Shown here piece after piece: positions 749 to 27,040 of a DNA stretch of 29,129 bases. The notes below the pieces were generated by a model. The model had not been told where the DNA came from. It made no database searches and was given only the letters and a program-made list of their open reading frames with translations. How positions within the stretch are numbered: the stretch's first letter is position 1; each line of letters starts with the position of its first letter. The stretch is from Candidatus Aenigmatarchaeota archaeon. GTDB lineage: Archaea > Aenigmatarchaeota > Aenigmatarchaeia > GW2011-AR5. The translations under genes and the position numbers were made by a program. The stretch lies in NCBI GenBank assembly GCA_043799385.1, contig JAZDNV010000017.1, forward strand, positions 1-29,129, read 5' to 3'.

Positions 749-1612
749 TTATGCTACTTCAGTGTTTTGCATAATTCTGGTGAGTTTTGCTTTGCATCCA
801 ATCTGATAGATGAAATTATACTCGTTTGAAAGCAGGCTTTCTGCAACAGCACTTTCTTCTGCCGTGATTTCAGCAAGGCAGAACCTCTTTGCCAGCATGT
901 AGTCAAAAACCTCGCATAGATCCTTCTGGTTCATATCCTGTATAGACGGCAGTATGTTGCACACTTTGCTGTTGAGCTCTTCCATTGGTATGCCGCTATT
1001 TGTGCTAAGGTCGCTTATGTTATTTGCGTGCATACAGTCCACGAAATAGTAAATCTGCATGTATGTTGATTCCCATTTTGTTTTTTCCACACCCATGATT
1101 TTGTTTGCCCATGATAATTCGCTCGTTCGGTCTAGCATCCCAAATCTGCACAATTTTGTAATAAAAGGTATATAGAATCCTTTCAAATCGTTCTCTGTTA
1201 GCGTGCTTGGTAAATTATTGTATGCAGACATGATTGCATCGGTTCTGTCTCTCATGATTTCAAAAGGCTCAAAACCTAGGTTTGCTTTCATCTGCATATA
1301 GACAAAAAGAAACGGTACCGCGCAATTTTTTTTAGAGTTGCAATCGTCAAATAACCGATCCAGATCGTTTGCTATCTGGTTTCTCTGTTCCTGCGTCAGG
1401 CTATTGAAATACCTTGGATTGTTGTATTCATTGAGGTTGCTCCATATTTCATTTATATTTAATGGTGTTGATGGCAGTTTTTGCAGATTATAGTAGTATA
1501 TCAAAGACAGTGCGACAATTATAAAAATTGCCAAAATCCAGCTGCTTTTTACTTTCTGTACTTTCGGCTGTACCTTTCGTCTCTTGTGAACGCTCCTGCT
1601 TTTTCTTTTCAT
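749..1612 (-). CDS. Membrane-anchored hypothetical protein with 8 conserved Cys (paralog A of 3422..4306)
   Basis: 287 aa with a basic N-terminus and one TM helix (WILAIFIIVALSLIYYY). Shares WAxKI, STYMQI, VCNILP and CKAxL motifs with 3422..4306. Confidence 0.75.
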   Translation of the reverse strand: MKRKSRSVHKRRKVQPKVQKVKSSWILAIFIIVALSLIYYYNLQKLPSTPLNINEIWSNLNEYNNPRYFNSLTQEQRNQIANDLDRLFDDCNSKKNCAVPFLFVYMQMKANLGFEPFEIMRDRTDAIMSAYNNLPSTLTENDLKGFYIPFITKLCRFGMLDRTSELSWANKIMGVEKTKWESTYMQIYYFVDCMHANNISDLSTNSGIPMEELNSKVCNILPSIQDMNQKDLCEVFDYMLAKRFCLAEITAEESAVAESLLSNEYNFIYQIGCKAKLTRIMQNTEVA

Positions 1613-1816
1613 ATAAACTCTATGATATTTTTAAGCTCCTGCCCTGTTATTAACTTGTTTTCCCTGATATTTAAGTTTTGTTAAGTCGTTGATATCTGCC
1701 TTTATGATGCACAGATAGATGGAAGAATCGTATTGCCGATTATACATGCGGCTTATTTGCTATTCATATCAGCAATATTTAAGATAAATTATAATTATTA
1801 TTATCAGGGTTGGACA

Positions 1817-2941
1817 ATGGATAGCAATGAAAAAAAAAGTCATCGAATAGAGACACTTTATCCACATCATTGTGTCTGGGAAATCACCCGTGCCTGCAAT
1901 ATGAGGTGTATACATTGCGGTTCAAGCGCAGGTCCGTTGACAAAAAGGCCGGACGAATTGAATACACAGGAAGCGTTGGATGTTATAAATCAGTTAAAGG
2001 AAATCGGAACAATAAAAGTCACCCTTTCCGGCGGAGAGCCTTTTCTAAGAGCAGACTGGGAAACTTTAGCAAAAGAAGTTGTCCGATTAAACATGTTCGT
2101 TTCGTTTATTAGCAATGGATTTTTGCTGAATGAGGATATAGCTGGGAGAATAAAAAGATTGAATGAAAACACTAATCTTGTACGTGTGGTATGCTTAAGT
2201 ATCGATGGTGATGAAAAAACCCACGATTATATAAGACAGACCAAGGGCTCTTTTGATAAGGTAACTCAAGCCATGGAAACGCTTAGAGATAGTGGTTTGA
2301 ATACTTCAGTGATAACACAGGTGAATAAGCTTAATCTTAAATTGCTGCCAAAGATAAGAGACAATATATTTAAATATAATAATATTGTTACTTGGCAGGT
2401 TCAAGTAGCTACTCCGTTCGGAAGGTTGGCTGAGGACCCAACGCTTTTGCTTAACCCTGGTGATTATCTCGAATTAGTAAATTTCATTGCAGAACAAAAA
2501 AGCATATTTGGAAGTAGAATCAGGATTGCTCATACCACAGGTTCATATACAGAGTCAGAGCCAATGTTAATTGGATGGGATGGTTGTTGGGCAGGATTAA
2601 AAGCTGTAGGAATTACCAGCAATGGCGGCGTGACCGGATGCCTGTCTTTGCAGGAGCCAAGGTTCATTGAAGGAAATGTGCGCACAAGAAGATTGGCGGA
2701 AATCTGGTATGATCCAAATTTTGCGTCATATAACCGTAATTTCAGAGAAGAGCTTCTGGAAGGTTATTGCAAGGAATGCGACCACCGCATAAAATGTCGT
2801 GGCGGTTGCAAAAATACAGCATATTCATTCTCCGGTTCACTTCATAATAATTTCTATTGTGCCCATAGAATCAGCCTTGGAGAAGTTCCCAAAGAAATAA
2901 AGTCAACCAGAACATCCGGGTGTGGTCAATACCATCCTTAG
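1817..2941 (+). CDS. Radical SAM/SPASM domain protein, putative peptide maturase
   Basis: CNMRCIHC (CxxxCxxC) in WEITRACNMRCIHCGSSAG, and SGGEP. Full SPASM Cys set: CWAG...GC-LSL...GNV...IW...CKEC...CRGGC...NNFYC. ATG 1817 (MDSNEKK) is preferred over the TTG at 1733 in the track. Confidence 0.9.
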   Translation: MDSNEKKSHRIETLYPHHCVWEITRACNMRCIHCGSSAGPLTKRPDELNTQEALDVINQLKEIGTIKVTLSGGEPFLRADWETLAKEVVRLNMFVSFISNGFLLNEDIAGRIKRLNENTNLVRVVCLSIDGDEKTHDYIRQTKGSFDKVTQAMETLRDSGLNTSVITQVNKLNLKLLPKIRDNIFKYNNIVTWQVQVATPFGRLAEDPTLLLNPGDYLELVNFIAEQKSIFGSRIRIAHTTGSYTESEPMLIGWDGCWAGLKAVGITSNGGVTGCLSLQEPRFIEGNVRTRRLAEIWYDPNFASYNRNFREELLEGYCKECDHRIKCRGGCKNTAYSFSGSLHNNFYCAHRISLGEVPKEIKSTRTSGCGQYHP

Positions 2942-3012
2942 GGTTATATAAAAAATTCTATTTTTTCTCTGATAAATGAGAAATAAAGATTGATTTATTC
3001 GGTGGAATTAAA

Positions 3013-3390
3013 CTAGGCATAGGCGCCACCCGTAGTGCATCCACCATATGCCACACATCCCGCTGTAGTACATCCCGTCGTGCACGCAGTCGTACATGCC
3101 GTCGTGCACGCAGTCGTACAACCGCACGAAGTCGTACAACCGCAACCACCACAACCCGCAGTCGTACAACTCGTCGTACAGCTAGCGCTGCCGTGTGAGC
3201 TTGTATGCTGTCCTGTTATTGTACTCGGTTCTGTAAATCCTACAGTGGTGCCTGATATATGAGTTGCTGCCGCTGCTCCTACACCGACCAGTAATGCGCC
3301 TAGCGACAGTGCAGCCTGCTTGGAGACCTTTCCCTCCTCACCCAGCAAGAATGCGCATATCGTGGCCTTGATCTTTGGAAGTATTGACAT
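3013..3390 (-). CDS. Putative RiPP precursor: His-Xaa-Ser repeat (HxsA-like) protein with a Cys/Thr-rich repeat tail
   Basis: 125 aa. Leader ...FLLGEEGKVSKQ followed by a hydrophobic stretch. Motifs HIS (44-46), HTS (62-64) and HGS (66-68), then 13 Cys and nine CTT triplets. Co-oriented downstream of hxsB, with its own TATA-like box. Confidence 0.8.
   Translation of the reverse strand: MSILPKIKATICAFLLGEEGKVSKQAALSLGALLVGVGAAAATHISGTTVGFTEPSTITGQHTSSHGSASCTTSCTTAGCGGCGCTTSCGCTTACTTACTTACTTGCTTAGCVAYGGCTTGGAYA
3061..3180. repeat. Imperfect 12-nt coding tandem repeat (CTTA/CTTS/CTTG units) inside the precursor
   Basis: gtcgtgcacgca-gtcgtacatgcc-gtcgtgcacgca-gtcgtaca at 3077-3120. Positions 3075-3096 and 3099-3120 are identical (24-nt period). 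More gtcgtaca copies occur up to 3180. Confidence 0.85.
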
Positions 3391-3411
3391 AATTATCTAT
3401 TGTTTCTTTAG

Positions 3412-3419
3412 TTAATAAA
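3412..3419 (-). promoter_or_regulatory. Putative archaeal TATA box for the precursor gene (leaderless-type spacing)
   Basis: Minus strand TTTATTAA lies 22-29 nt upstream of ATG 3390, within a 31-nt intergenic gap with no SD motif. Confidence 0.5.
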
Positions 3420-3421
3420 TA

Positions 3422-4306
3422 TTACAAAATACTTTTAAGCATAGCTTTGCACTCCTTCTGGTGGTTTGATTCGTAATCCTTAAGGAGTATGTTCTCTGCG
3501 GAAGCCCGCTCTTCTTCAGTGATATTGATTGAGCAGAACTGCTTTATTCGTAAGTAATTATGAATTTTACACGGGTCTTCTCGAATTATATTGTTGAAAG
3601 CTGGCAAGATATTGCATACCATATTGTTTAATTTATTCAGGCTCATGTTGAGCCTTTGGCTAAGATCTTTAGTTGTATCTGCTTTTATGCATTCGACCAT
3701 ATAGCTAATCTGCATATAAGTGGATATCCAATTTTTCTTGTCGATTAAAATGATTTTTTCTGCCCAATAAGTCTTATCCTGGTCACTAAACCAGTAAGTA
3801 GGGAATTTATCCGTTCCATTGAAAAAGTGTGTATTGCACATCTGTATTAATAGTGGCACAAGGTATCCATTCAAATCGTCCTCTCTTAATGTCGGATAAT
3901 CTTTTAATAAATTTAAGTATATTTCTACAATCTTGTGATTAAAAATTTCATTGTCTATAGAATTCATGTTTCCCCAGCCTATTGGTGCATTCTCAATTTC
4001 AACTATAACAAATCGTGTCCTTAGGTAAGTATATATAAAATGAACGTTGCAATTCTCGTTTAGTGCCCAATTCTTGCATCTTTCATATAGTAAATTATTG
4101 AAAGATTTGACGAGTTGAGCTCTTTGCGTATTCGATAGGTTTTCGAGATATAATTTATTGGCATATTGTGCAGAATTTTCCAGTATTTTGTTTGGGTCTA
4201 TAATTTCCTCATTCTTGGAAAATTGGTAATAATAGAGACCAATGCATAAAATAATAATTAAGAAAAAGACTGTTAACTCTACCTTTCTTTTCATGTCAGA
4301 CATCAT
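3422..4306 (-). CDS. Membrane-anchored hypothetical protein with 8 conserved Cys (paralog B of 749..1612)
   Basis: 294 aa with an N-terminal TM (LTVFFLIIILCIGLYYY). Colinear similarity to 749..1612 is visible by eye. Confidence 0.75.
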   Translation of the reverse strand: MMSDMKRKVELTVFFLIIILCIGLYYYQFSKNEEIIDPNKILENSAQYANKLYLENLSNTQRAQLVKSFNNLLYERCKNWALNENCNVHFIYTYLRTRFVIVEIENAPIGWGNMNSIDNEIFNHKIVEIYLNLLKDYPTLREDDLNGYLVPLLIQMCNTHFFNGTDKFPTYWFSDQDKTYWAEKIILIDKKNWISTYMQISYMVECIKADTTKDLSQRLNMSLNKLNNMVCNILPAFNNIIREDPCKIHNYLRIKQFCSINITEEERASAENILLKDYESNHQKECKAMLKSIL

Positions 4307-4371
4307 ATTCTAAACAATATATATTCACTTATAATAATCACATCTCCTAATATTTAAAAATAAAAAGAGGC

Positions 4372-5820
4372 TCATCGTTCTGGTCTTACCCATTTTGTAA
4401 TTATCTCACGGTCCTTTGACAGCAGTCGCCTGAAAACCTCCTTGGTTTGTTCGCCTCTGATTTTGCAGACGAAATTCGGGAATCGTGGCACAAGCGTGCC
4501 CGTTTCTCCATAAGCTGACACAAGGCATGGCGAGCAGAATGCGTGCCAGACGCAGCTCTCGCAAGACGATGATAAACAGGACGACAGTGAGATGAACGAG
4601 GAGACGTTCTCTGAAGTGAATACTTCTTTATAGCTATTGCTCTTTACATTGCCTAGTCTGAACGTCTCGTTCGACCGCGCTTCGTCACACGTATAAATAT
4701 CACCGCGTTCGTTGTAGGCGCACTGGATCGTTCCGACGCCGCAAGGCGAGTTGAGGCAGGCGTTGAATGTAGATTTCTTACACAGAATCCTTGACAATAT
4801 GAAGGACGTCGTTTCATCCCAAAACTTGGTGACCATACTATTTAGGTCTATTACGTATTGCAGGTAATCTTTCCAGAATTTTATGAACTCTTCTGGCGTA
4901 TAGCCAATTTTATCCCAGGCGTTGATGGCCATACCAGCTATATTAAGTTCCCTCATCCTCGTATGGTCGAACCCGCGTTTTATGTATTCGTCGACGATCT
5001 CTTTTGCATATGGCAGCGAATGTTTTGTGATCGTGGGTATAGCACTGATTTGGATACCCCTTCTCTTTATTATCTCGATCCATTTTACAGCATCATCGTA
5101 GCTGCTGTTGCCGTTTCTGCACGGACGGTTCCTGTCATGCAGTTCCTTGGGCCCGTCGAGTGACGTGCATACCCTTATCTTATTTTCAGTAATATAATTC
5201 AGGATATCCTCATCCATCAGTGTCAGATTTGTCACAATCATGAAAGAAATATTTCTGTCTCCGGTATACCATCCACGCTCATCCGGTTTCGGTGATTTAT
5301 TCTTCTCTTTCGTATAATCTACGATATACTTAACGATTGGAAAATTCAGCAGCGGCTCGCCGCCCTGGAATTCGATATTCAGGAATTTCGATGGCGACTG
5401 GAAGATAAAGTCGACGACTGCCTTTGCAGTAGTTTCGTCCATGTCGTACTCCTTTGAATTAATATCCTTGGATAACGCATGGCAATAAATGCAGTTCTGG
5501 TTACATCTTAATGTGGGCACGATTATATGCAGATTTATGCCATTGAATAGGTAATTGAATCTCTGTTTGCACGTATCGACCATATCATTTGTATTCTTTT
5601 CTGTTATGATTATTCCCCTTTCTTCTAGAACATCGAAAAGATGCGGGTCTTCATTTATTTTATTTCTTATAAGAAGATCATACTCATTCTTTGAGAGAAC
5701 TATCCATGAACCATGGTCAGTCGTTACAAGAATATGCTCGTCGTCGAACTTATGCGTAAGAAACTTATTGGCCGTATATGGTACATTATTGATGATATTC
5801 TCATTCAGGTAGTAAACCAT
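4372..5820 (-). CDS. hxsB: His-Xaa-Ser system radical SAM maturase HxsB
   Basis: LHIIVPTLRCNQNCIYCHA, IEFQGGEPLLNF, TSLDGP..LHDRNR, SPCGVGTIQCAYNERGDIYTCDEAR and CESCVWHAFCSPC match HxsB-type motifs. Has an N-terminal RRE-like region and lies next to HxsD-like genes and an HxS peptide. Confidence 0.88.
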   Translation of the reverse strand: MVYYLNENIINNVPYTANKFLTHKFDDEHILVTTDHGSWIVLSKNEYDLLIRNKINEDPHLFDVLEERGIIITEKNTNDMVDTCKQRFNYLFNGINLHIIVPTLRCNQNCIYCHALSKDINSKEYDMDETTAKAVVDFIFQSPSKFLNIEFQGGEPLLNFPIVKYIVDYTKEKNKSPKPDERGWYTGDRNISFMIVTNLTLMDEDILNYITENKIRVCTSLDGPKELHDRNRPCRNGNSSYDDAVKWIEIIKRRGIQISAIPTITKHSLPYAKEIVDEYIKRGFDHTRMRELNIAGMAINAWDKIGYTPEEFIKFWKDYLQYVIDLNSMVTKFWDETTSFILSRILCKKSTFNACLNSPCGVGTIQCAYNERGDIYTCDEARSNETFRLGNVKSNSYKEVFTSENVSSFISLSSCLSSSCESCVWHAFCSPCLVSAYGETGTLVPRFPNFVCKIRGEQTKEVFRRLLSKDREIITKWVRPER

Positions 5821-5828
5821 TCGATCAC

Positions 5829-6110
5829 TTATCTAAAACCTTTTACTATCTCCGGGACTTTTCCATCGTTTTTTATTATGCCCAGAACATAATTGTAGAA
5901 TTCGTGACCAAGTATATACAAATCTATTTCCTCCGTTTTTGGTTTAAGTAACACTTGCATGATATCCTGCCCATCGACCGATGTAAAGCATACATCAGAA
6001 AAATCCTGTGAAGCTTTGAATACGCAATCGGATGGGTAAAACCTTGTATCGAAGATTACAGTAACACTCCCATCCTCTTTGTTTATGGTTATTTTGTCAT
6101 TCATTTGCAT
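5829..6110 (-). CDS. HxsD-like small protein (second copy)
   Basis: 93 aa. FDTRFYPSDCVFKASQDF...VLLKPK...LGHEFYNYVL parallels the neighbouring HxsD (VNPRLYPLEVIYSSAYIF...VQLRPK...LGREFNNELL). Confidence 0.7.
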   Translation of the reverse strand: MQMNDKITINKEDGSVTVIFDTRFYPSDCVFKASQDFSDVCFTSVDGQDIMQVLLKPKTEEIDLYILGHEFYNYVLGIIKNDGKVPEIVKGFR

Positions 6111-6541
6111 TCGTCCTTATTTTTCCACGGCTTTGCGATCTTTTCCGGATCTTCTGTATATGATGCTTCATTTCTGGGGTGGTGAATAAATCGATGCTCT
6201 TGCTTGCCGTCCTGCTCGTTCGTGAGCAGTGCTCTGCGCATTATAGTTTCGCGCAAGCCCTGATTTTTCACAGTCCTATGCAGGTAAACCATGTAATTGA
6301 GTAATTCGTTGTTGAATTCACGACCCAATTCTTCGATATCTGAATCGTTCTTTGGTCTTAGCTGAACCAGAATCTCCTCTTTAGGGTCGCCGTCTATCAT
6401 GACGAATGCACGGTCAATAAAAATATATGCAGAGGAATATATCACCTCCAACGGATATAATCTTGGATTCACGGAAACATTTACGAACTTATCTTTTCTA
6501 TGCAGTTCAAGATTGTCTATCATCTGAATATCTTCTTCCAT
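6101..6541 (-). CDS. hxsD: His-Xaa-Ser system protein HxsD
   Basis: NPRLYPLEVIYSSAYIFIDRAFV...EELGREFNNELLNY...LRETIMRRAL is an HxsD-like pattern. ATG 6541 follows an SD-like GGGGTG and avoids overlap with the divergent gene (the track starts at 6595). Confidence 0.8.
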   Translation of the reverse strand: MEEDIQMIDNLELHRKDKFVNVSVNPRLYPLEVIYSSAYIFIDRAFVMIDGDPKEEILVQLRPKNDSDIEELGREFNNELLNYMVYLHRTVKNQGLRETIMRRALLTNEQDGKQEHRFIHHPRNEASYTEDPEKIAKPWKNKDECK

Positions 6542-6585
6542 TAGAACACCCCATAGTATTAATATACTAGAGTTTAAATTATTTT

Positions 6586-7641
6586 GTGTTTGCAATACTT
6601 TTTGCTCTCGTTGTATTCGGTATATGGACTTCTTATACCGATATAAAGAAAGGCATGATTAGGAACAATGTCATTCTGCTCCTATTACTGGCAGCGTTTA
6701 TTCTGAACACATTCTATACGAGAAGTTTTGTTGTTGCTACTGCGGCATCGGCTGTAAACATAACGGTTGCCATAGTTGGAGGATTTTTGCTATGGTTTGC
6801 TGGTATGTGGTCAGCGGCAGACGCAAAATTGTTCATTGGCTTCGCCTTTCTTCTGCCTATAACCCTATATGAGCACAGTTTTTCATACTTTCCAGCTGTG
6901 GCGATTTTGATAAACAGCTTTGTGCCGATATTCTTGATACTTTTTATTAACTTGGTTTTAAAAACAAACTCAAAGGATATAAAGAAAGCCGTACGTGAAC
7001 AGTTAAATATAAAGAGTGTTCTTCGTTTGGCTCTGGCTGTTTTTGCAATATCATTTATACCCATGGTCATGCGCTATGTCTTTAATATACAGTTTGAATA
7101 CTTCACTTCGATACTCTTCCTTTTCATAATTTTTGAGGTTGTTGAAAAAACGATTAAGGTTAAAATGAATGTATTTTACATAATCATGTCAATCGCATAT
7201 GTCATATTTTTTAATAGTTATATATTTACATTGGATTTTATTTTCAATTTTATTAGATGGTTTCTAATGTTACTAGGAATATTCTTTTTGATTAATCTCA
7301 GCAGATTTTCATTCACTTCGTCGGTGAAGATAACCGAATTGAAAGAGGGTATGATACCTGCTGAAATCATTGTCAAAAGCAGCGAAAAATATGTTACAAG
7401 ACCAATGGCCTTTATTACCCCTTTCTCGATGCTTAGGCAGAGAAAGGAATCGATATTTGGATACAATCCTGACGGTCTGGTTGGCAAGGATATAAAAAAT
7501 ATTCAGTCATTGTATAGAGAGAAAAAGTTAGGTTTCGATGAGATTAGAGTATCCAATACAATGCCTTTTGCGCCGATATTATTCATAGGAGCGCTGATAA
7601 CCTATTTTTCTTCTGGAATCTTTCTTAATTTGTTCATATAA
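6586..7641 (+). CDS. A24 family prepilin/preflagellin peptidase (archaeal FlaK/EppA-like, multi-TM)
   Basis: First catalytic Asp in TSYTDIK. Second in AGMWSAADAKLF (a GxGD variant). C-terminal ITELKEGMI...MPFAPILFIG archaeal peptidase domain. Many TM segments. Confidence 0.85.
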   Translation: MFAILFALVVFGIWTSYTDIKKGMIRNNVILLLLLAAFILNTFYTRSFVVATAASAVNITVAIVGGFLLWFAGMWSAADAKLFIGFAFLLPITLYEHSFSYFPAVAILINSFVPIFLILFINLVLKTNSKDIKKAVREQLNIKSVLRLALAVFAISFIPMVMRYVFNIQFEYFTSILFLFIIFEVVEKTIKVKMNVFYIIMSIAYVIFFNSYIFTLDFIFNFIRWFLMLLGIFFLINLSRFSFTSSVKITELKEGMIPAEIIVKSSEKYVTRPMAFITPFSMLRQRKESIFGYNPDGLVGKDIKNIQSLYREKKLGFDEIRVSNTMPFAPILFIGALITYFSSGIFLNLFI

Positions 7642-7653: not shown

Positions 7654-7684
7654 CCGCGAATAACAATTACTTTTATTGATAGAT

Positions 7685-10012
7685 ATGCGTAACAATATTT
7701 TGATTGCATTAGCGTTTTTGCTCCTACTGCAATTTTCTTATGCTGCATGCCCAGAATCAACTTGTTTGGCTCTTGGCTATTCTACTGCACGGTGCAGCGG
7801 TGCGACGACTTGTAATTCTGGCGAAGTTGATGTAGCATCATGCACAACTGGGCCGTATGGCGAAAGATATCCATGTTGCTGTTCCAGTCCAATGAAAATC
7901 TGGATAAAAGACCCAAACGATTTTACAGTAGTGAATGGGGCATTGATGAGCAGTTGCACTTTAGCCAGTAGTACACAATCGTGCTTTTATTCATATTATA
8001 CATGCGATGTAAGGGGAACTTATACAGGTCAGACATGCAAGGATTATTCTTCTGGCTTGGATTATGTGGCTGGAACAACGTGCAGTGCTTGGACGAATCT
8101 CTGGTATTGCAATATTGAATGTAAAAAAGACAAGGACTGCCCTGAGGGTGAGTGCTGCCTTGTTGACAATACATGTGGCCTTTGCCCGCCACCGCCGCCG
8201 TGCGAGACGGACAACGACTGCTCGCCAGAAATAACAGGCGATTACTGCTGCGCGGACGGAAAGTGCAGGTCGTCATGCGCAGGTTATCCGAACGTTACTA
8301 TCACACCGGCAATACAATACGGCTTGGCAGGAGAAGCGTTGAGCTATACAGTAACGGTGAACAATTCAAATAATTCTGCTCCGGTTTCATTCACGCTGAC
8401 TTATGGATGCCCGCAGAACTGGACGTGCAGCTTCAGCAAAAACACGATTGTTGTAAATCAGAGCAACATAACAACAATGTCTGTGTTACCGCCCCTGGGC
8501 AAGGACGCTGGCAGTTATAGATTCAGTGCAACTGCGGCAAGGAGCTCAAACACGAGCATTTCAGGAATAGGCTATGCGACATACGTCCTGGAGTCGCAGT
8601 GCAATCTAGATTGCAATGCAAGAAACTACATCGCAGGCTCGTGCAGATCCGTATGCGAATCGCCGGACTGGATTGGAATAGGCGCATCCGATTGCCTGAG
8701 CAGCTGCTGCTGCATAAACGCAACAATGCCTGCGAACGCTAGCGAGTGGAGCGTAACGGTTTCACTGAACCTGACAGCAAAGAGACCGAATGAAGTAAAT
8801 TGGTCATACTTCGGGAATCTCGACTTTTCGACTGGCATGGCTACAGCTACAGGAAGACTTTTCGAATATTCAAACTACCTTTCACCATCCAAAACAAGCG
8901 GATACGTGAACCTTCTGCAGAATCCGTGTGAACCAGGTGATTTTGTGATACCAAGTGTTAATACACGGGTGATATGGACAAAGCCAACGTTCTCTAGGGA
9001 ATATGAATGCACAAAAGACCAATGTATGCTCAGGCTGAAGGTCGACAATACGTTGATAGAAAGCGCGTGGTCAACCAATCATTGGGTTGGAGTCATAAAC
9101 ACGAGCATATACCATTCGGACGTTACAGCGAACGTGACATTCCTGCCGACAGGCGCAACTGGCGAGGATTCTGAATCCTATGAAGTGGTTGATGAAAAAT
9201 ACATACTCATCGCAGTGAGTTATCCTTACGTCAAGAACCGCGTCGTGCCCCTGACAGAGACGGGAGAGCCCAATTTCACCAGAACGATGCCTATCGAATT
9301 CTCGGTCAAAGGCATTATAAGAGACAAGAACAGTCCGTTGTATTCAATGAATTGCGACGACAGCATATGCAACGCGTCTTATAATATAGACGGCGGTGGC
9401 TGGAAAAGATTGTCTTGGAACGCTCTGGAAAAAGCGTTCACAGATTCTGCATCGAGCAACGGTCTAACGTGCAACGTGTATCACAGCTTGAACGTAATGA
9501 TGGCTTCTGCCCAGGCGAGCGGCACAGGCAGAATCAGATTCTACATAAACTGCATACCGAAGATAACGGTCAATCCGAAAGAAGTGTCGATTGCGCTTGG
9601 CAGAAAGAACATACCTGTGTTCAACGTCACCATATGGAACCCTGTTGATACAAGCCATGTGTATGACTTGGAGATGAAGAACTCGGACCCGACCCAGGAC
9701 TACCTCACTCATTGGACAAGATTCGAGTACGATAATGATAAGATTGTCCAGCACCCGCTTGCTTTGACTGATCTTAACAGGGCAAAGGCATTCATGGGCT
9801 CAATGGATTCAGCATCGACTATCGTTCAACTGACAGAGGATGCATCATCAGTGGCAGGCGTCTACCCTATAAAGTTCACTGCCACGGGTTCGTACCTGGA
9901 AGGCGAGGGCACGTTAATGGTCTATGCAGAGGGATTAAATGAGTTCGCAGTGTGGCAGCTGTTCTTCTTGATGATGTTTGCAACCTTGGTCATGGTTATA
10001 ATAAAGAAATAA
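7685..10012 (+). CDS. Large secreted Cys-rich cell-surface protein with Ig-like beta domains and a C-terminal membrane anchor
   Basis: Signal peptide MRNNILIALAFLLLLQFSYA. Repeated Cys modules, a PPPPP linker, an Ig/NEW3-like segment (GEALSYTVTVNN...PQNWTCSF) and many NxS/T sequons. Ends in LNEF + TM helix + KK. Confidence 0.8.
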   Translation: MRNNILIALAFLLLLQFSYAACPESTCLALGYSTARCSGATTCNSGEVDVASCTTGPYGERYPCCCSSPMKIWIKDPNDFTVVNGALMSSCTLASSTQSCFYSYYTCDVRGTYTGQTCKDYSSGLDYVAGTTCSAWTNLWYCNIECKKDKDCPEGECCLVDNTCGLCPPPPPCETDNDCSPEITGDYCCADGKCRSSCAGYPNVTITPAIQYGLAGEALSYTVTVNNSNNSAPVSFTLTYGCPQNWTCSFSKNTIVVNQSNITTMSVLPPLGKDAGSYRFSATAARSSNTSISGIGYATYVLESQCNLDCNARNYIAGSCRSVCESPDWIGIGASDCLSSCCCINATMPANASEWSVTVSLNLTAKRPNEVNWSYFGNLDFSTGMATATGRLFEYSNYLSPSKTSGYVNLLQNPCEPGDFVIPSVNTRVIWTKPTFSREYECTKDQCMLRLKVDNTLIESAWSTNHWVGVINTSIYHSDVTANVTFLPTGATGEDSESYEVVDEKYILIAVSYPYVKNRVVPLTETGEPNFTRTMPIEFSVKGIIRDKNSPLYSMNCDDSICNASYNIDGGGWKRLSWNALEKAFTDSASSNGLTCNVYHSLNVMMASAQASGTGRIRFYINCIPKITVNPKEVSIALGRKNIPVFNVTIWNPVDTSHVYDLEMKNSDPTQDYLTHWTRFEYDNDKIVQHPLALTDLNRAKAFMGSMDSASTIVQLTEDASSVAGVYPIKFTATGSYLEGEGTLMVYAEGLNEFAVWQLFFLMMFATLVMVIIKK

Positions 10013-10052
10013 ATCGCCCACTGCTTCAGATTATCATCTTGCTAAAAACTAA

Positions 10053-10091
10053 TTTATATATAGGAGAACAATTATATTTAACGTGAGGTGA
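10053..10091 (+). promoter_or_regulatory. TATA box and Shine-Dalgarno upstream of eS26
   Basis: TTTATATA at 10053-10060 and GAGGTGA at 10085-10091, 6 nt before ATG 10098. Confidence 0.6.
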
Positions 10092-10097
10092 AATACT

Positions 10098-10367
10098 ATG
10101 CCTGCTCCATACAAACGAGGTTATCATCATACCAAGTCAAAGGGACACGAATCTACTGTTACATGCGGATTCTGCGGAAGGAGCGTTCCGAGATGGAAGA
10201 CAATCGCTTCATATCGCGGTTTTCGAATAAACGATCCGGTTCTAAACAAGCAAATGGACAGGAGGATGATGAGCATGTTCCAGAGAAAGCTCTACGCATG
10301 CCCGTCCTGTGCCAGACATCGTGGTATAATAAAGGTAGGAAGAAGCAGAAGGTTGGGGTCTGACTGA
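10098..10367 (+). CDS. rps26e: 30S ribosomal protein S26e (eS26)
   Basis: 89 aa, basic. KGHESTVTCGFCGRSVPRWK...DP...KLYACPSCARHRGIIKV matches the eS26 zinc-finger pattern CxxCGRxVPxxK / CxSCAxHxxI. Strong SD. Confidence 0.85.
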   Translation: MPAPYKRGYHHTKSKGHESTVTCGFCGRSVPRWKTIASYRGFRINDPVLNKQMDRRMMSMFQRKLYACPSCARHRGIIKVGRSRRLGSD

Positions 10368-12265
10368 TGGAAAAGACGCGCGCAAGGCAGATGCTCGAGA
10401 TACTGCGAGCCCAAGGAATTGATTCAGTATCAAGGACTGAAGTCAAGTTAGACATCAAAACGCCTGCTGCGCCAGTTTTTTTGCCAATCGCAGAAAAATT
10501 GCCTGCCGCTGAGGTAAAAGAACCGCTGATTGCGGATAGCGTAAAAAAAGAGGAGCCGGCGAAAAAAGAAGAAAAAACGCAAATAAAGCTGAAGGGATTC
10601 CTGTACAGAAAGTTGATAGGCGGCAGGAAGGATATTGGAAAAAATAACGCATCGCAGAAGACGGAATCAAAACAGCGTTTCCACATACGCGGTTTGCTGT
10701 ACGATAAATTACATGAACAGAAGTCGGAACAGAGCAAATATCCCAGGTTTGCTATAGAACCAAGCGGAATAATTCCAGTGCTCTCGAAGGACGAGCTAAA
10801 GGAAAAGACCACGAGCTATCCGCTGATAAAGCCTTATGCCTATGCGGACATAAGGTTTGACCAGAGCGAGAACTCGCTCGTTTATTTCGTCGTTGAGCCC
10901 GAGCTGAACGATTTTGAGAAGCATGTTATATCTAAACTAAAAGAGGGCTTGCTGCAGGTTATCGACATCTCTCTGAAGGACATAAAGAAGGAGGATAAGA
11001 TGATCGACTTCCTTGAGGGGAACATAAACAAACTTCTGGATGAATATGACTTCAGCCTGAATGAAAAGGAATACCTGAAGATAATGTATTTCATATATCG
11101 TGATTTCGTCGGATTGAATGATATCGAGCCGCTGCTTTGTGACCCGTATATAGAGGACATAGGGTGCGACGGTTTCAACGTTCCCTTATATGTTGTCCAT
11201 CAGCGGTACGGCTCATTGAAGACTAATATAATATATCCTGATGAAAACGAGCTGAAAGAATTCGTTACGAAGTTAGCAGAACGCTGCGACCGCTTCATAA
11301 GCTATGCAGAACCGATGCTGGACGGAGCATTACCGGATGGCACTCGTGTCCATGCCTCATTAGCTGGCGACGTGACAACACGAGGCCCTACGTTCTCGAT
11401 AAGAAAATTCAGGGATGAGCCTTTCACGCCTGCCGATATAATTCGTTTGAATACTGCGTCGCCCGAGTTACTCGCCTACATATGGTTCGTTGTCGAGAAC
11501 GGCGTCAACATACTGATAGTGGGCGGCGTTGCAACAGGCAAGACGTCGCTGCTGAACTGCATCTCAATGTTCATACCGTCTGAAGCGAAAATCGTATCAA
11601 TAGAGGATACGCGCGAATTATCATTACCGCATGAGAACTGGATACCAGGCGTTGCGCGCACCGGCTTTACCGGTACTGGCGTCGGCGAAGTAACGATGTT
11701 CGACCTGCTGAAGGAGTCGTTCAGGCAGAACCCTGACTATCTGGTCGTGGGCGAGATACGAGGCAAAGAAGCATACGTAATGTTCCAGTCCATGGCGTCA
11801 GGCCACCCGTCAATATCAACAATGCACTCCGGTAGTGTCGATGACGTCGTCAGCAGATTACGAACAGAGCCGATATCCCTGCCACCTGGATTAATACAGC
11901 TTTTGGATTTAGTCATCATTATGGTCCATGCGCGTGAGAAAGGAAAATCCGCCAGGCGTGTTAAAGAAATTGTTGAAATACAGAGCATTGATTCTGAAAC
12001 AGGTTTTGCAAGGACGAATAAGGTCTTTACCTGGACACCATCCCAGGACACGTTTGAATATCATGGCGATTCGTGGGTACTGCACAAGATATCAACTGAA
12101 AAGGGAATAACAATGAACGATATTGTTCGCGATATAGCCAAGCGAAAGAAGTTCATAAACTGGATGGTGGAGAAAAATATCACGAACATGAACGAAATCG
12201 CGAAATACATTGAAACATACAGGAGAAGCCCTGAAAAAATAAATTCTTTGATCGGATATGAATAG
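10367..12265 (+). CDS. Archaeal type II/IV secretion (type IV pilus) assembly ATPase, FlaI/TadA/VirB11 family
   Basis: YPLIKPYAYA...YFVVEPEL, GLNDIEPLLCDPYIEDI, FSIRKF, Walker A GGVATGKT, SIEDTREL, RQNPDYLVVGEIRG and GHPSISTMH. Confidence 0.93.
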   Translation: MEKTRARQMLEILRAQGIDSVSRTEVKLDIKTPAAPVFLPIAEKLPAAEVKEPLIADSVKKEEPAKKEEKTQIKLKGFLYRKLIGGRKDIGKNNASQKTESKQRFHIRGLLYDKLHEQKSEQSKYPRFAIEPSGIIPVLSKDELKEKTTSYPLIKPYAYADIRFDQSENSLVYFVVEPELNDFEKHVISKLKEGLLQVIDISLKDIKKEDKMIDFLEGNINKLLDEYDFSLNEKEYLKIMYFIYRDFVGLNDIEPLLCDPYIEDIGCDGFNVPLYVVHQRYGSLKTNIIYPDENELKEFVTKLAERCDRFISYAEPMLDGALPDGTRVHASLAGDVTTRGPTFSIRKFRDEPFTPADIIRLNTASPELLAYIWFVVENGVNILIVGGVATGKTSLLNCISMFIPSEAKIVSIEDTRELSLPHENWIPGVARTGFTGTGVGEVTMFDLLKESFRQNPDYLVVGEIRGKEAYVMFQSMASGHPSISTMHSGSVDDVVSRLRTEPISLPPGLIQLLDLVIIMVHAREKGKSARRVKEIVEIQSIDSETGFARTNKVFTWTPSQDTFEYHGDSWVLHKISTEKGITMNDIVRDIAKRKKFINWMVEKNITNMNEIAKYIETYRRSPEKINSLIGYE

Positions 12266-12938
12266 AATCAAAACAGGAATAACAGGTTTTGACAAGCTCG
12301 TGGAGGGTGGAATACCGGAAAAGGATTTGATTCTGCTCAGCGGTCGGTGCGGTGCAGGCAAAACGGTTTTTGGTCTTCAGTTTTTATTCTCATCACCAGA
12401 AAAAGAGCCAGGATTATTCATCAGCTTCGAAGAGGACCTTCAGCAGATAAAAAACACAGCAATGCAGCTCGGCTGGAATGCAGACGCTTACGAGAAGGCA
12501 GGAAAGATACGATTACTGCGCTACGATCCATTCAAATTAGAGGACATATTCGAAATAATTGAGAACAACATCCGCGAGATAAATGCGAAGCGCGTTGTCG
12601 TTGATTCAGTTTCATCGTTAGGCACATACGTCAAGGATAATTCAGAGCTGAGAAGGATGATAATGCAGATAAGCAACATGCTCAGAAAGAACGGATGCAC
12701 ATCCATTCTCACATGCGAGGTGCTTAATGATAATTCGCTCTCTCGGTTTGGCGTCGAGGAGTTCGTTGCGGATGGAGTGATACTCTTGCACAACGTTCTG
12801 ACTGCCGGCGAATACCGCCGCGGTTTGAGCGTCTGGAAGATGAGGGTAACCAACCACTCACGAAAAATCCACCCGTACAAAATCACTGAAAAAGGGTTTG
12901 TCGTCTATCCGAATGATACTATTTCTCTAAAAGGCTGA
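12258..12938 (+). CDS. KaiC-like single-domain RecA-superfamily ATPase
   Basis: RIKTGITGFDKLVEGGIP, Walker A GRCGAGKT, SFEE, RVVVDS, EEFVADGVI and KMRVTNH. Confidence 0.9.
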   Translation: MNRIKTGITGFDKLVEGGIPEKDLILLSGRCGAGKTVFGLQFLFSSPEKEPGLFISFEEDLQQIKNTAMQLGWNADAYEKAGKIRLLRYDPFKLEDIFEIIENNIREINAKRVVVDSVSSLGTYVKDNSELRRMIMQISNMLRKNGCTSILTCEVLNDNSLSRFGVEEFVADGVILLHNVLTAGEYRRGLSVWKMRVTNHSRKIHPYKITEKGFVVYPNDTISLKG

Positions 12939-12985
12939 TTTTAAAAATAATTTTAAATAGGAGACACAAGTATTATAAGGTCTAA

Positions 12986-13855
12986 ATGTACAGGAAGACG
13001 CTGAAGTATTTTGGAAAGCTGGGATTAAAATACCTGACGGGTTATGTTGCGCCACTCAAAGAAGAGATAACGAAATCGAATCTTAACATACTCTTTGAAT
13101 TCTACGTTGGAAAGATGCTATTCCTATCGTTTGTCGCATTCGTTGCGGTTTTCCTCGGAACTACAATAGTTTCTGTCTTGATACTGAATCTTGATATACT
13201 TCTGTCATTGATAGGAGCGCTCATCTTATCGGTTGCCGTGTCGTTTGCAGTGCTCACGATATATCATTCCTATCCGTTCCACACGCTTTCAACGAGAAGG
13301 AATGATATAGAGGGCGTGATGCCTTTTGCCATAAACCACATGTCAGCTATTGCCGCTAGTGGCGTTCCGCCGTACGTTGTATTCAAACTGCTTACCGGCA
13401 TAAAGGAATATGGCGAATTCATGCACGAGTCGCAGCGTATTGTCCGAAACATAGACGCGTTCGGCATGGATTTGATATCTGCGATAAAAAACGTGGCTGA
13501 AAGAACGCCATCCGAGCAGTTTCGCCAGTTTTTATATGGAATCGTATCGAATATAGAAACAGGCGGCGACTTGAAGAAGTTTTTTGACAATGCGGCAAAA
13601 GAAGCATTATTTGATTATCGCTTGAGAAGGGAAAAATATCTGCAAGCATTATCGACTTATGCAGACTTCTATACAGCTGTGCTCATCGCCGCGCCGTTAT
13701 TCTTCATCGCTGTTCTTGCAGTGATGGGAATGATTGGCGGTACGGTCATGGGGTTACCAATCGACCTGGCGATGACGATGGGCATCTACGGCTTGATGCC
13801 TATTCTAAACATGGCGTTCATAGCGTTCATACACTACACGCAGCCGAATATATAA
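12986..13855 (+). CDS. Type II secretion system F / TadC-like pilus platform membrane protein
   Basis: MPFAINHMSAIAASGVPP...YGEF...FGMDLISAIKNVAERTPSEQF...TGGDL. TM pattern typical of archaeal TadC. Confidence 0.9.
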   Translation: MYRKTLKYFGKLGLKYLTGYVAPLKEEITKSNLNILFEFYVGKMLFLSFVAFVAVFLGTTIVSVLILNLDILLSLIGALILSVAVSFAVLTIYHSYPFHTLSTRRNDIEGVMPFAINHMSAIAASGVPPYVVFKLLTGIKEYGEFMHESQRIVRNIDAFGMDLISAIKNVAERTPSEQFRQFLYGIVSNIETGGDLKKFFDNAAKEALFDYRLRREKYLQALSTYADFYTAVLIAAPLFFIAVLAVMGMIGGTVMGLPIDLAMTMGIYGLMPILNMAFIAFIHYTQPNI

Positions 13856-13867
13856 ACGTGATGAAAG

Positions 13868-14701
13868 ATGAAAAAAAAGAAATTCAAGTTCGGGCTGAAG
13901 ACAATAAATTTCATTACGCTGCCGGTTGGCGCGGCAATCCTGCTGATAAATTATCTCTACTTCATCAAAAACTCTCAGGTCTCGATGCTTCTTGACCTGT
14001 TGGCAGCTGTGATAATCCTGGGTGTCCCGCTTATATACCGTTACATGCTCATAAGCAGGATGAGGAAAATGGAAGCGCTTTTTCCGGTTTTTCTTCGTGA
14101 CATTACAGAAAACATAAACGCTGGCATGACGTTGCCGCAGGCGATTCGCGCCGCATCGGCCAACAACTATGATATCCTTTCGCCGCACATCAAAGAGATA
14201 AACGCAAGGATATCGTGGGGTATACCATTCGAGAAAGTGCTCAATGATTTTGCAAGCACAGTAGGCAGCGATAACCTTAAGAGAACAGTCCATGCAATCG
14301 TTGAGGCGCACAGGAGTGGCGGAACAATGAACACGATTCTTGAATCAGTCGGCGAGTCATTAAAGGAATTAGAGAAGATAAAGAAAGAGCGGACGGCATC
14401 CGTGTATGCTCAGATGATAAACGGTTACCTTATCTACTTTGTATTCCTGGGCGTGATGGTAGGAATGAACGTGTTCCTGCTGCCGACGTTCGAGTGGGGC
14501 GGGCTCGAGGGCCAGCCGAGCAGCGAACTTGGGAAAGTCCTTCCAGATTTATTCCGCCACCTCGTTCTCATACAGGGCGTTTTTGCAGGATTGGCAATCG
14601 GCAAGATGGCAGAAGGAACGATATTCGCAGGCGTCAAACATTCATTAGTCTTGGCAGTCGTAGGCTTCTCGGTCTTCATTCTGTTCTCGCCAGCAGCATA
14701 A
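13868..14701 (+). CDS. Type II secretion system F / TadC-like membrane protein (second copy)
   Basis: FPVFLRDITENINAGMTLPQAI...YDILS...ISWGIPFEKVL...EAHRSGG...GLAIGKMAEG...GVKHS. Confidence 0.9.
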   Translation: MKKKKFKFGLKTINFITLPVGAAILLINYLYFIKNSQVSMLLDLLAAVIILGVPLIYRYMLISRMRKMEALFPVFLRDITENINAGMTLPQAIRAASANNYDILSPHIKEINARISWGIPFEKVLNDFASTVGSDNLKRTVHAIVEAHRSGGTMNTILESVGESLKELEKIKKERTASVYAQMINGYLIYFVFLGVMVGMNVFLLPTFEWGGLEGQPSSELGKVLPDLFRHLVLIQGVFAGLAIGKMAEGTIFAGVKHSLVLAVVGFSVFILFSPAA

Positions 14702-14760
14702 ACACGGCGGAATTAAATTTATATATACCAGAGGAGAAATAAATAAAGTAAGGGAAAGAA

Positions 14761-15147
14761 ATGAAGAATAAACCAAAAAGGAAAATCAGCGTCAGGAACA
14801 ACTCATCATACATAATCATCATTGCAATAATGATAGTCGTCATTGCAGTAGTCTCGATATTCTCCTACAAGCAACCAGCGCCAGTGGATACAACGTTGCC
14901 AGAGCTGAAAGCAATCGCTGAGCAGAGTCCGCTGGTCAATGATTATGCAGGCGTGCAACCAACGTATCGCAAGCTTTCTGCGCAAGACGTGCAATCATCA
15001 ATAGCCGCAGGATTATTCTCCGCGGACGCGAGCAATGAAATCTATTTCCTCAACTACATCAAGGACAATCAAGGCATTTCTTTAATAATTGACAAAGCGA
15101 GCGGAACGATACTTAAGACGCAGGTCGTCGTCGGCATCGGCCAATAG
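14761..15147 (+). CDS. Small membrane-anchored hypothetical protein
   Basis: 128 aa with a basic N-terminus and one TM helix. Upstream TTTATATA at 14718-14725. C-terminal IIDKASGTIL is weakly PepSY-like. Confidence 0.65.
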   Translation: MKNKPKRKISVRNNSSYIIIIAIMIVVIAVVSIFSYKQPAPVDTTLPELKAIAEQSPLVNDYAGVQPTYRKLSAQDVQSSIAAGLFSADASNEIYFLNYIKDNQGISLIIDKASGTILKTQVVVGIGQ

Positions 15148-15153
15148 GGTGAA

Positions 15154-16750: not shown

Positions 16751-17296
16751 CTAGAATTCGCATCCTGTAGTCGATTCAAACCAGTCCAATTGCTTTATTC
16801 CTTCATACGTTTTGTTGTTGTAAGATATTGACGGAACGCTGCATTCTGTGCAGTCGACGAACACTCTTCTTGGTAATCTACCACCGCCTAGAATCTGCAG
16901 TTGCGTTGATTCGTTGCCTGAGCTGTAGATTTTCAATCCTTTCGAGTACAGGCAGTCGATGAACCTCTTCTGTCCGTCGAGCAGTTTTTTGTACTCCTTG
17001 GCGTTAAGCGTGTTTTCTGATATTACATTTCCGTCCAGAGAAACGTAGACTATAGTAGGCTCTGTGTCTAGGACGTAGATTGTCGCTTTGTAGAGCCAGC
17101 CGTCGCGGGCGACTTCGACTCTCTCTATATGCATCCCGCTTGAAAGCTCATACAGGTCCTTTATCTGCATCGCGATTTCTGAGCGCGACAATCCTGGCGT
17201 AAGGAAATTGACTGTCAACGTCCCGAAGAAAAGGCCTACTATCAGCCCGAAAGCAAATACTACGGACAAAATTAACAGATTCTTTTTCATAATCAT
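16751..17296 (-). CDS. Membrane-anchored hypothetical protein with a degenerate thioredoxin-like C-terminal domain
   Basis: N-terminal TM. VYVSLDG, FIDCLYSKGLKIY...Q..G...FVDC...PSI...YEGI..L.....GC. The start at 17296 gives an ATGA overlap with the GT2 stop (the track starts at 17305). Confidence 0.6.
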   Translation of the reverse strand: MIMKKNLLILSVVFAFGLIVGLFFGTLTVNFLTPGLSRSEIAMQIKDLYELSSGMHIERVEVARDGWLYKATIYVLDTEPTIVYVSLDGNVISENTLNAKEYKKLLDGQKRFIDCLYSKGLKIYSSGNESTQLQILGGGRLPRRVFVDCTECSVPSISYNNKTYEGIKQLDWFESTTGCEF

Positions 17297-18132: not shown

Positions 18133-18183
18133 AGTATCTAAGAACTAATCGTTTTTAATGGTTTTATTTGTTAATAAATTAGC

Positions 18184-19623: not shown

Positions 19624-19688
19624 CTGTCTAAACGAACTAGAAAACTTTATATTATAGCGGGAATCTAATAATTAATAGGGTGTGCAAA

Positions 19689-21059: not shown

Positions 21060-21060
21060 A

Positions 21061-22128: not shown

Positions 22129-22132
22129 AATC

Positions 22133-23311: not shown

Positions 23312-23324
23312 ATTTTTGATGATT

Positions 23325-24308: not shown

Positions 24309-24343
24309 CTAAATTTTAAATCCTTGGGATTCATATCTAAACT

Positions 24344-26146: not shown

Positions 26147-26148
26147 TG

Positions 26149-26976: not shown

Positions 26977-27040
26977 ACCGTCTATAAGTATACACAAAAC
27001 TTTTAAGAATACTGCCTGAATAAACTAAATTTTGATAAAA

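Follow-up and report, generated by a model that had tools for sequence, protein, structure and literature searches.

The window analyzed here, which appears to be the entire 29,129-bp contig JAZDNV010000017.1 of a Candidatus Aenigmatarchaeota archaeon, is best read as harboring a His-Xaa-Ser (HXS or Hxs) peptide-modification system of an archaeal, DPANN-type form in which, we infer, a dedicated membrane peptidase of family A24 clips the leader from the precursor peptide; we put the probability of this reading at roughly 0.6. The conserved core of the archaeal form comprises HxsD, a small HxsD-like protein, the radical S-adenosylmethionine (rSAM) maturase HxsB, a precursor of the HxsA3/HxsA4 type and the A24 peptidase, which is a conserved Hxs partner. 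Archaeal HxsB already carries that name in NCBI and JGI annotation, and it is the A24-linked Hxs architecture that we have not found described.

The comparison relied on the best 80 loci around HxsB relatives in species-representative genomes, divided by record titles into 41 archaeal-labelled and 39 bacterial-labelled loci, whose six-frame open reading frames (ORFs) were searched with the window proteins and afterwards with hidden Markov models (HMMs) made from the resulting matches. An A24 homologue was counted as adjacent when it scored at least 200 bits and lay within 3.3 kb of hxsB. By this measure, peptidases of the window's subfamily adjoin hxsD or hxsB in 31 of the 80 loci, namely 30 of the 41 archaeal-labelled ones and L027, which is labelled Syntrophomonadaceae. 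A conserved link to a prepilin-type peptidase was one of the checks set by the first-pass annotation, an earlier reading of the same DNA, and the link is thus borne out. The peptidase lies upstream of hxsB on the same strand in 27 loci, giving the order A24, hxsD, (hxsD-like), hxsB, precursor, and three loci have the divergent arrangement of the window; an A24 match is present anywhere in the locus in 44 of the 80. Genes resembling the archaellum ATPase FlaI were detected near hxsB in only three loci, as weak matches and all in Saccharibacteria, and hence the peptidase does not merely travel with pilus genes. The initial assignment of A24 to the neighboring pilus-like operon alone was dropped on this comparison of 31 with three loci. 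Additionally, in the candidate phyla radiation (CPR) locus L049 a bacterial PilD-type A24 peptidase (PF06750, 117.7 bits; PF01478, 62.9 bits) is located directly upstream of hxsD, and BLAST-cluster mates of it occupy the same place in L054, L061, L063 and L075, so that two distinct A24 subfamilies share the position beside hxsD.

The window peptidase itself matches the archaeal A24 C-terminal domain PF06819 with 31.1 bits, above the cut-off of 23.4. Among 27 Hxs-linked homologues, PF01478 is matched by 22 (E<=0.001) and PF06819 by 19, and the catalytic residues D19 and D79 are invariant in all 27 aligned sequences. The second of these residues is embedded in the motif W-x-A-[GA]-D-x-K-L-F, a GxGD-like position that reads A-A-D in the window. 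An AlphaFold2 (AF2) model is polytopic and helical, with a predicted local distance difference test score (pLDDT) of 88.2. The sequence gave no match to PDB chains at E<=1, and no NCBIfam model matched the Hxs-linked A24 peptidases (E<=0.01 for the window protein, E<=1e-8 for those of the related loci).

The locus and the operon next to it are composed as follows.

749-1612, minus strand: eight-cysteine (8-Cys) paralogue, 287 amino acids (aa), without known family (phmmer against the 294-aa protein below)
1814-2941 (alternative TTG start at 1733), plus strand: second rSAM/SPASM enzyme (PF04055, PF13186)
3013-3390, minus strand: precursor, 125 aa (HxsA3-type leader by NF038309; own precursor HMM)
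3422-4306, minus strand: N-terminally anchored 8-Cys protein, 294 aa, of an orphan family (alignment of family members)
4372-5820, minus strand: HxsB rSAM/SPASM maturase (TIGR03978, above cut-off)
5829-6110, minus strand: small HxsD-related protein, 93 aa (NF038315)
6101-6541/6595, minus strand: HxsD-like protein, with ATG 6541 as the probable start (TIGR03976)
6586-7641, plus strand, GTG start at 6586: A24-family (prepilin/preflagellin-type) aspartyl membrane peptidase (PF06819, PF01478)
7676-16746, plus strand: type IV pilus/archaellum-like operon (NF058587, PF06745, PF00482 twice)

The minus-strand run from hxsD to the precursor is compact, with intergenic gaps of -10, 8, 65 and 31 nucleotides (nt); the precursor and SPASM genes are convergent, and the A24 gene diverges from hxsD across a spacer of 44 nt if hxsD starts at ATG 6541, which is residue 19 of the TTG-initiated ORF. 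All genes named by the first-pass annotation are present in the ORF list at the coordinates it gave, and its 44-nt divergent spacer holds with the ATG start. It had not mentioned that the products of 749-1612 and 3422-4306 are paralogues, and the locus therefore reaches its left coordinate of 749 for a reason that the annotation did not state. Neither tRNA genes nor Rfam matches were found in the window. The guanine-plus-cytosine (GC) content is uneven, at 0.329 for 8-Cys, 0.348 for A24, 0.358 for HxsD-like and 0.548 for the precursor, the last being driven by repeats, against 0.44-0.51 in the pilus-like operon. The A24 gene thereby groups with the Hxs genes and not with the operon, which is weak evidence, and the history of the Hxs block may differ from that of its neighbors.

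HxsB is the sole component of the locus that scores above a curated Hxs cut-off in NCBIfam, matching TIGR03978 with 403.2 bits over residues 19-477 (cut-off 370), and in this it agrees with the HxsB assignment, for which the first-pass annotation had proposed matches to HxsB models as a test. The cysteines of its CxxxCxxC motif (C106, C110 and C113) and those of the SPASM region are invariant or nearly so in an alignment of 40 sequences. Identity to the annotated HxsB of an Aeromonas plasmid is 32.5%; the closest relatives within the related loci are from Aenigmatarchaeota (51-52%), which fits the proposal of an archaeal-type Hxs locus, and those on metagenome contigs reach 64-71%. Such relatives are plentiful, with 4638 proteins at E<=1e-20 among the 8000 candidates scored, and their source names include Aenigmatarchaeota, Nanoarchaeota, Micrarchaeota and Altiarchaeales.

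Upstream of hxsB, the same position as in the canonical system, the hxsD ORF (6101-6595) matches TIGR03976 with 42.7 bits (E 5.5e-11, cut-off 50) and our own HxsD HMM with 188 bits, while the small HxsD-like protein (5829-6110) matches NF038315 (HxsD_rel) with 37.4 bits (E 2.1e-9, cut-off 41). Judged by sequence, both look like clear homologues of HxsD and HxsD_rel, with scores just below the cut-offs. The pairing of HxsD with a small HxsD-like protein is not peculiar to this locus, as had been supposed, and is found in 34 of 81 rows, of which 24 belong to the 42 archaeal rows (the window plus 41 loci) and 10 to the 39 bacterial ones.

Some source labels in this set are at odds with the HxsB they accompany. 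Two bacterial-labelled bins, L005 (Aminicenantes) and L027, contain archaeal-type HxsB and A24 genes, and in six bins labelled Methanosarcinales (L014, L017, L018, L020, L029 and L079) HxsB groups with Woesearchaeota/Nanoarchaeota on the tree. The likely causes of these odd labels are gene transfer, symbionts that were binned together with other genomes, or bins with the wrong name.

The only NCBIfam match of the precursor, HxsA3 (NF038309; residues 4-47, E 1.4e-4, 21.6 bits against a cut-off of 65), covers the leader, and an HMM built from the precursors of the related loci gave 91 bits. The protein consists of a leader (residues 1-30), a small residue (G31), a hydrophobic segment beginning A-L-L-V-G-V-G-A-A-A-A, three HxS motifs and a tail with 13 Cys. 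All three of its His residues (H44, H62 and H66) stand in H-x-S, although no long array is formed; with 11 Ser in 125 residues, three of three would arise by chance with a probability of about 7e-4. P5, E18 and G20 do not vary across 25 aligned precursors, in which conservation of G31 and H62 is at least 90%. In place of an HxS array, the tail carries C-T-T-x and G-C repeats, encoded by imperfect 12/18/24-nt tandem repeats at 3061-3144, and according to the ORF list the other reading frames of this tail hide no HxS array. Only two close relatives were found (P0160 and P0161), in which GC repeats follow the hydrophobic stretch and two HxS motifs end the protein.

The related precursors comprise four parts, namely a conserved N-terminal segment, a hydrophobic stretch, a variable part and an (HxS)n region usually ending in S-Y or S-W. 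They are HxsA3 or HxsA4 in NCBIfam, with bacterial members above the HxsA4 cut-off and archaeal members below it. The leader motif they share, [KR]-x-L-P-K-I-K-K-K-I-x-x-F-L-x-x-E-E-G-K-I-S-K, shows that the FLxGEEG-type leader, whose conservation had been listed among the points to check, is indeed preserved. Residue 11 after the Gly of E-E-G was always small (41 G, 4 A and 3 S) in the 48 precursors caught by the motif pattern, 11 of the 59 considered having escaped it, and the 15 residues that follow the small residue are 88% hydrophobic or small in the same 48. A small residue followed by a hydrophobic helix has the shape of a prepilin-type (class III) cleavage site, which in the window would fall at G31.

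Several related loci have further features of note. The locus with the best A24 match to the window (L002, 4104-5741) encodes a precursor fusion in which the Hxs leader is followed by an (STT)n run and about 400 more residues; L055 has a 504-aa precursor ORF consisting mostly of HxS repeats (3311-4825), and the precursor of L042 (6850-7422) has an extra C-terminal domain. The Aenigmatarchaeota isolate AUK108 contains two separate A24-type Hxs loci in one genome (L001 and L034), the first of which has no recognizable precursor, whereas hxsB is followed there by two extra rSAM genes. A giant ORF stands directly upstream of A24, on the same strand, in Iainarchaeum-type loci (L021, 3-3488; L050, 1447-8112; L052, 1546-8313; L059, 943-7830), ranging from 1161 aa (truncated) to 2295 aa and without a Pfam match in the L021 copy; straight after the precursor these loci carry an rSAM gene for 333-359 aa, with a SPASM domain by Pfam in three of the four.

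The arrangement suggests the following course of events. The leader of about 30 residues (L-P-K-I-K ... F-L-x-x-E-E-G-K-I/V-S-K) would be what HxsB and the HxsD pair recognize in order to modify the HxS region or core of the precursor in the cytoplasm. As the leader is followed by the small residue and then by the hydrophobic helix, in what would be a prepilin-like signal layout, the A24 peptidase could clip it at the cytoplasmic face of the membrane, and the modified core would end up outside the cell, where the helix would tether it unless a second cut set it free. In this lineage the HxS array would have been cut to three motifs and joined to the 13-Cys tail, and cross-linking of that Cys/Thr tail would most plausibly be the task of the extra SPASM enzyme. 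As lineage-specific accessories, the 8-Cys proteins, which probably face outward and contain disulfide bonds, would bind the product or shield the cell that makes it. By analogy with the bacterial system, the mature peptide may have an antiviral role at the cell surface.

A number of observations weigh against this reading of the locus. The match of the window protein to PF01478 (24.5 bits, E 3.9e-5) is just below the gathering score of 26.5, and a Foldseek search with its model gave no match at E<=0.001, presenilin ranking first (E 0.26) and the preflagellin peptidase FlaK (3s0x) fifth (E 1.1, target-normalised template modelling (TM) score 0.49). Class III signals have an n-region that is short and positively charged, and position -2 is occupied by Lys or Arg. 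Here about 31 residues precede the putative cleavage site, which is long for such a signal, and at position -2, where Lys or Arg would be expected, the window has Leu and the relatives vary. Bacterial loci without a nearby A24 gene share this leader and small residue, so the motif is not specific to A24-type loci, and many precursors have an A-x-A-like motif after the hydrophobic segment (A-A-A-T in the window), which fits cleavage by ordinary signal peptidase I. In eight of the 31 A24-type loci, an HxsC4-like gene is present at a distance of 1-8.6 kb from hxsB. The window's A24 gene diverges from hxsD and is co-directional with the pilus-like operon. Lastly, the SPASM enzyme has no orthologue in the 80 loci, its best match being from a CPR bacterium (E 1e-30), and the 8-Cys family has no match there at E<=1, so that these proteins are putative members of the system, by position.

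This last point leads to the alternative that the SPASM enzyme and the two 8-Cys proteins stand outside the Hxs system, as a separate inserted module or one with another substrate, which we regard as possible but doubtful. The SPASM enzyme matches PF04055 (87.1 bits) and PF13186 (39.2 bits) above their cut-offs, and its best NCBIfam matches are peptide maturases (TIGR04103, 237.9 bits of 725 required; TIGR03913, 210.9 of 591.75), with no curated subfamily reached. The 294-aa protein has one Cys in an N-terminal hydrophobic helix and eight further Cys that are invariant in 22 of 22 family members; the product of 749-1612 is related to it by phmmer at E 1e-34 with 34% identity and the same invariant Cys, and both paralogues probably face the outside of the cell. 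Searches with the 294-aa protein returned no Pfam, NCBIfam or PADLOC match, and the family comprises 37 representatives at E<=1e-3 in 1.84 billion proteins. Its AF2 model is all-helical (pLDDT 78.7), with no Foldseek match in the PDB at E<=0.001 and no usable feature match in the ESM Atlas, where structure matches had TM<=0.50 and were generic helical repeats.

Beyond the missing orthologues, a separate module would be consistent with the convergent orientation of the SPASM gene and with the heterogeneity of second rSAM genes near archaeal hxsB. These are plain rSAM genes, SPASM-type genes (6 of 21, window included) or fusions with methyltransferase, family 2 glycosyltransferase (GT2), B12-binding, DUF362 or APH domains, some of which (B12-binding, methyltransferase, GT2) are clearly unrelated. 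The gene order argues otherwise, as one 8-Cys gene lies within the run from hxsB to the precursor (gaps of 31 and 65 nt) and its paralogue lies beyond the SPASM gene, which is hence bracketed by the two. The substrate would also suit the enzyme, since SPASM maturases often act on Cys-rich peptides (sacti- and ranthipeptides) and the 13-Cys tail is of this kind; P0160 and P0161 have Cys-rich segments as well. In addition, P0122, a homologue of the 294-aa protein, and P0002, the closest HxsB relative, are each reported on a 6829-bp contig, which suggests that 8-Cys and hxsB are linked in that relative too. Across the sequences compared, only this narrow lineage has the SPASM enzyme, the tail rich in Cys and Thr and the pair of 8-Cys paralogues.

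A second alternative, which we consider unlikely, is that the HXS system has the standard four parts and that its hxsC is encoded beyond the contig end or in another part of the genome. Only 4371 nt of DNA remain downstream of hxsB before the contig ends. In the window, neither TIGR03977 nor the HxsC4 model NF038332 (cut-offs 267.9 and 500 bits) was among the best 25 NCBIfam matches for any of the four rSAM proteins; our own HMM, made from eight HxsC-like proteins of related loci, reached at best 76.9 bits, the level of a generic rSAM protein, against the at least 186 bits required to count a gene as HxsC-like; and HxsC, HxsA and HxsD of the canonical Aeromonas plasmid system gave no phmmer match at E<=10. 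The lack of HxsC noted in the first-pass annotation thus stands for the 29-kb contig. The annotation had left open whether HxsC was absent or replaced by the SPASM enzyme, and replacement as a family trait does not hold: with no orthologue in the 80 loci and a SPASM domain in only 6 of 21 second rSAM genes, the enzyme was rejected as a conserved HxsC substitute.

An HxsC-like gene within 400 nt of hxsB, which we counted as adjacent, is present in 13 of the 80 loci, distributed as 0 of 31 A24-type loci against 13 of the 49 others (Fisher p 0.0012); among archaeal-labelled loci the figures are 0 of 30 and 6 of 11 (p 1e-4), and both tests ignore kinship between loci. A quickly built HxsB tree unites the bacterial sequences in a single 37-row clade (SH-aLRT 100) with no adjacent A24, and its archaeal sequences mix A24-type and HxsC-type loci several times. 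The HxsC4-like genes found at a distance in eight A24-type loci would favor the four-part reading; they score 133-185 bits against NF038332 in the six scanned. Against it, 23 of the 31 A24-type loci have no HxsC-like gene in the fetched DNA, seven of these with at least 8 kb on both sides, and none has HxsC at the canonical position directly beside hxsB. Another rSAM gene lies within 5 kb in 20 of the 31. A strict replacement of HxsC by A24 was also considered and rejected in view of the same eight loci, and that rule is further weakened by L001 and L002, which have other small rSAM genes after hxsB.

Third, the precursor could be an ordinary Sec-secreted peptide with a long n-region, in which signal peptidase I cuts behind the hydrophobic segment and A24 has some other substrate. 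The A-x-A-like motifs would suit such a cut, and canonical HxsA is described as having a Sec signal peptide in the parts of PMC13128918 that concern it. We hold this to be quite unlikely, since it leaves unexplained why two different A24 subfamilies are conserved next to hxsD, and the same article, where it treats processing, reports the cleavage of Escherichia coli HxsA as more than signal-peptide removal.

Finally, that A24 is the processing enzyme of the adjacent pilus-like operon, lying beside the Hxs genes by chance or through a shared island history, is very unlikely: its gene is on the same strand as the operon, 34 nt upstream of the 778-aa gene that precedes the FlaI-, FlaH- and FlaJ-like genes, and it points away from hxsD, yet the subfamily recurs beside hxsD/hxsB in the related loci, usually co-directional and seldom with FlaI-like genes nearby, its GC content is that of the Hxs genes, and the operon N-termini include no clear class III pilin. 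A dual role, in which the dedicated Hxs peptidase is shared with this operon, may also apply.

The operon itself begins, 34 nt after A24, with the 778-aa protein, which is Cys-rich and secreted, with a signal peptide and a hydrophobic C-terminal end. It further encodes a FlaI-like ATPase (NF058587, 394 bits, cut-off 550), a KaiC/FlaH-like ATPase (PF06745), a FlaJ/T2SSF protein split over two ORFs (12986-13855 and 13868-14701, PF00482 each), and a 128-aa protein and a Gly-rich 530-aa protein, both without family. In Saccharibacteria/Patescibacteria, a type IV pilus gene set stands directly upstream of hxsD in L049 and also in L054, L061, L063 and L075; in L049 (2933-9393) it encodes a PilB-like ATPase, a pilin with an N-methylation motif, a response regulator, a PilT-like ATPase, PilC and the PilD-type A24. 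Farther along the window, 17293-26997 holds a sugar/glycan-modification cluster with a GT2 glycosyltransferase, a phosphodiesterase-family protein, a PaaK/F390-synthetase-like ligase, a DegT-type aminotransferase, an asparagine synthase homologue, a methyltransferase and two rSAM enzymes without SPASM (21061-22128 and 23325-24308), neither of them HxsC-like.

The HXS system was reportedly first predicted by Haft and Basu in 2011. PibD, FlaK and EppA are A24 peptidases that process archaeal class III signal peptides. The window peptidase resembles them as a polytopic membrane protein with two conserved Asp and an Arc_PepC domain, and its putative substrate likewise presents a charged segment, a small residue and a hydrophobic helix. 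It differs in that the segment removed would be a strongly conserved, leader-like stretch of about 31 residues, of the kind found in ribosomally synthesized and post-translationally modified peptides (RiPPs), with no Lys or Arg at -2, in that its gene and those of its relatives lie beside rSAM maturases and not pilins, and in that the structural similarity to FlaK is not significant. The Cys-rich tail, its period-4 C-T-T-x repeat and the SPASM neighbor recall sactipeptides, ranthipeptides/SCIFF and CXXX-repeat peptides (TIGR04115 and relatives); unlike in these, the SPASM enzyme is below every curated cut-off and the Cys-rich part is fused to an Hxs-type leader.

Among the nearest kin are the HxsA3/HxsA4-type loci of DPANN archaea and of CPR, Elusimicrobia and Myxococcota bacteria, which share the leader motif, the tandem HxsD pair and HxsB, the archaeal members also having the adjacent A24. 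In contrast to those with a long (HxS)n region ending in S-Y/S-W, the window has the Cys/Thr tail, the SPASM enzyme and the 8-Cys paralogues. Their family models (NF038309, NF038313, NF038315 and NF038332 for HxsA3, HxsA4, HxsD_rel and HxsC4) exist as annotation, with no paper found. The literature search, from which subscription journals were largely excluded, likewise returned no publication that describes an Hxs architecture as archaeal or A24-linked; besides the 2026 study of the bacterial system and its preprint, it yielded a 2022 rSAM mapping paper, genome reports and unrelated work. For the window, PADLOC-DB v2.0.0 gave no more than generic viperin-type rSAM matches.

The bacterial counterpart, hxsD-hxsB-hxsC-hxsA, is presented in the main text of Li et al. 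(Nat Commun 2026, PMC13128918) as an antiphage defence that stops phage DNA entry, and an HxsA survey across bacteria given there places 99.7% of systems in Pseudomonadota. According to its passages on processing, N-terminal processing of E. coli HxsA requires HxsB, HxsC and HxsD, HxsA acts outside the cytoplasm, and a +8 Da modification falls on an S-H-x-S-S motif; these passages do not name the cleaving protease, and the words peptidase, protease and archaea are absent from the main text. The window agrees with that system in its HxsB, in the HxsD-like gene upstream and the HxS precursor gene downstream of hxsB, and in a precursor with a hydrophobic N-terminal export segment for which N-terminal processing is to be expected. 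It departs from it in its archaeal host, in the lack of HxsC on the contig, and in its dedicated A24 peptidase, second small HxsD-like gene, extra SPASM enzyme and two orphan 8-Cys proteins. Canonical HxsA, as seen in the Aeromonas sequence and in the relevant parts of PMC13128918, has an ordinary signal peptide without such a leader and a peptidoglycan-binding domain, whereas the window precursor has the leader of about 30 residues before its hydrophobic segment, no peptidoglycan-binding domain, and three HxS motifs with the 13-Cys tail. Canonical HxsA matched the related precursors only weakly, at best with E 7e-6, and an HxsA-based survey may therefore miss this branch.

These observations delineate a large and differently built Hxs branch that spans DPANN archaea as well as bacteria of the CPR, Elusimicrobia and Myxococcota, whose archaeal form pairs HxsB/HxsD with a prepilin-type peptidase and not with an adjacent HxsC, and which thereby offers a testable candidate for the unexplained N-terminal cleavage. 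More broadly, and only tentatively, we propose that the leader of an rSAM-modified peptide doubles, in DPANN archaea and in some CPR bacteria, as a removable prepilin-like part, with A24 serving as both leader peptidase and membrane-insertion checkpoint, and that the HXS surface barrier extends to archaea without HxsC, here with a Cys-rich core, a recruited SPASM enzyme and two 8-Cys proteins. If true, this would be a RiPP processing route that we have not found described, and the antiviral surface barrier formed by HXS would reach archaea that lack HxsC. The window is in itself a natural experiment, in which the leader and the maturation core are kept and the Cys-rich core peptide and the second enzyme differ, and the archaeal form of the system provides a handle on surface display by small-genome archaea.

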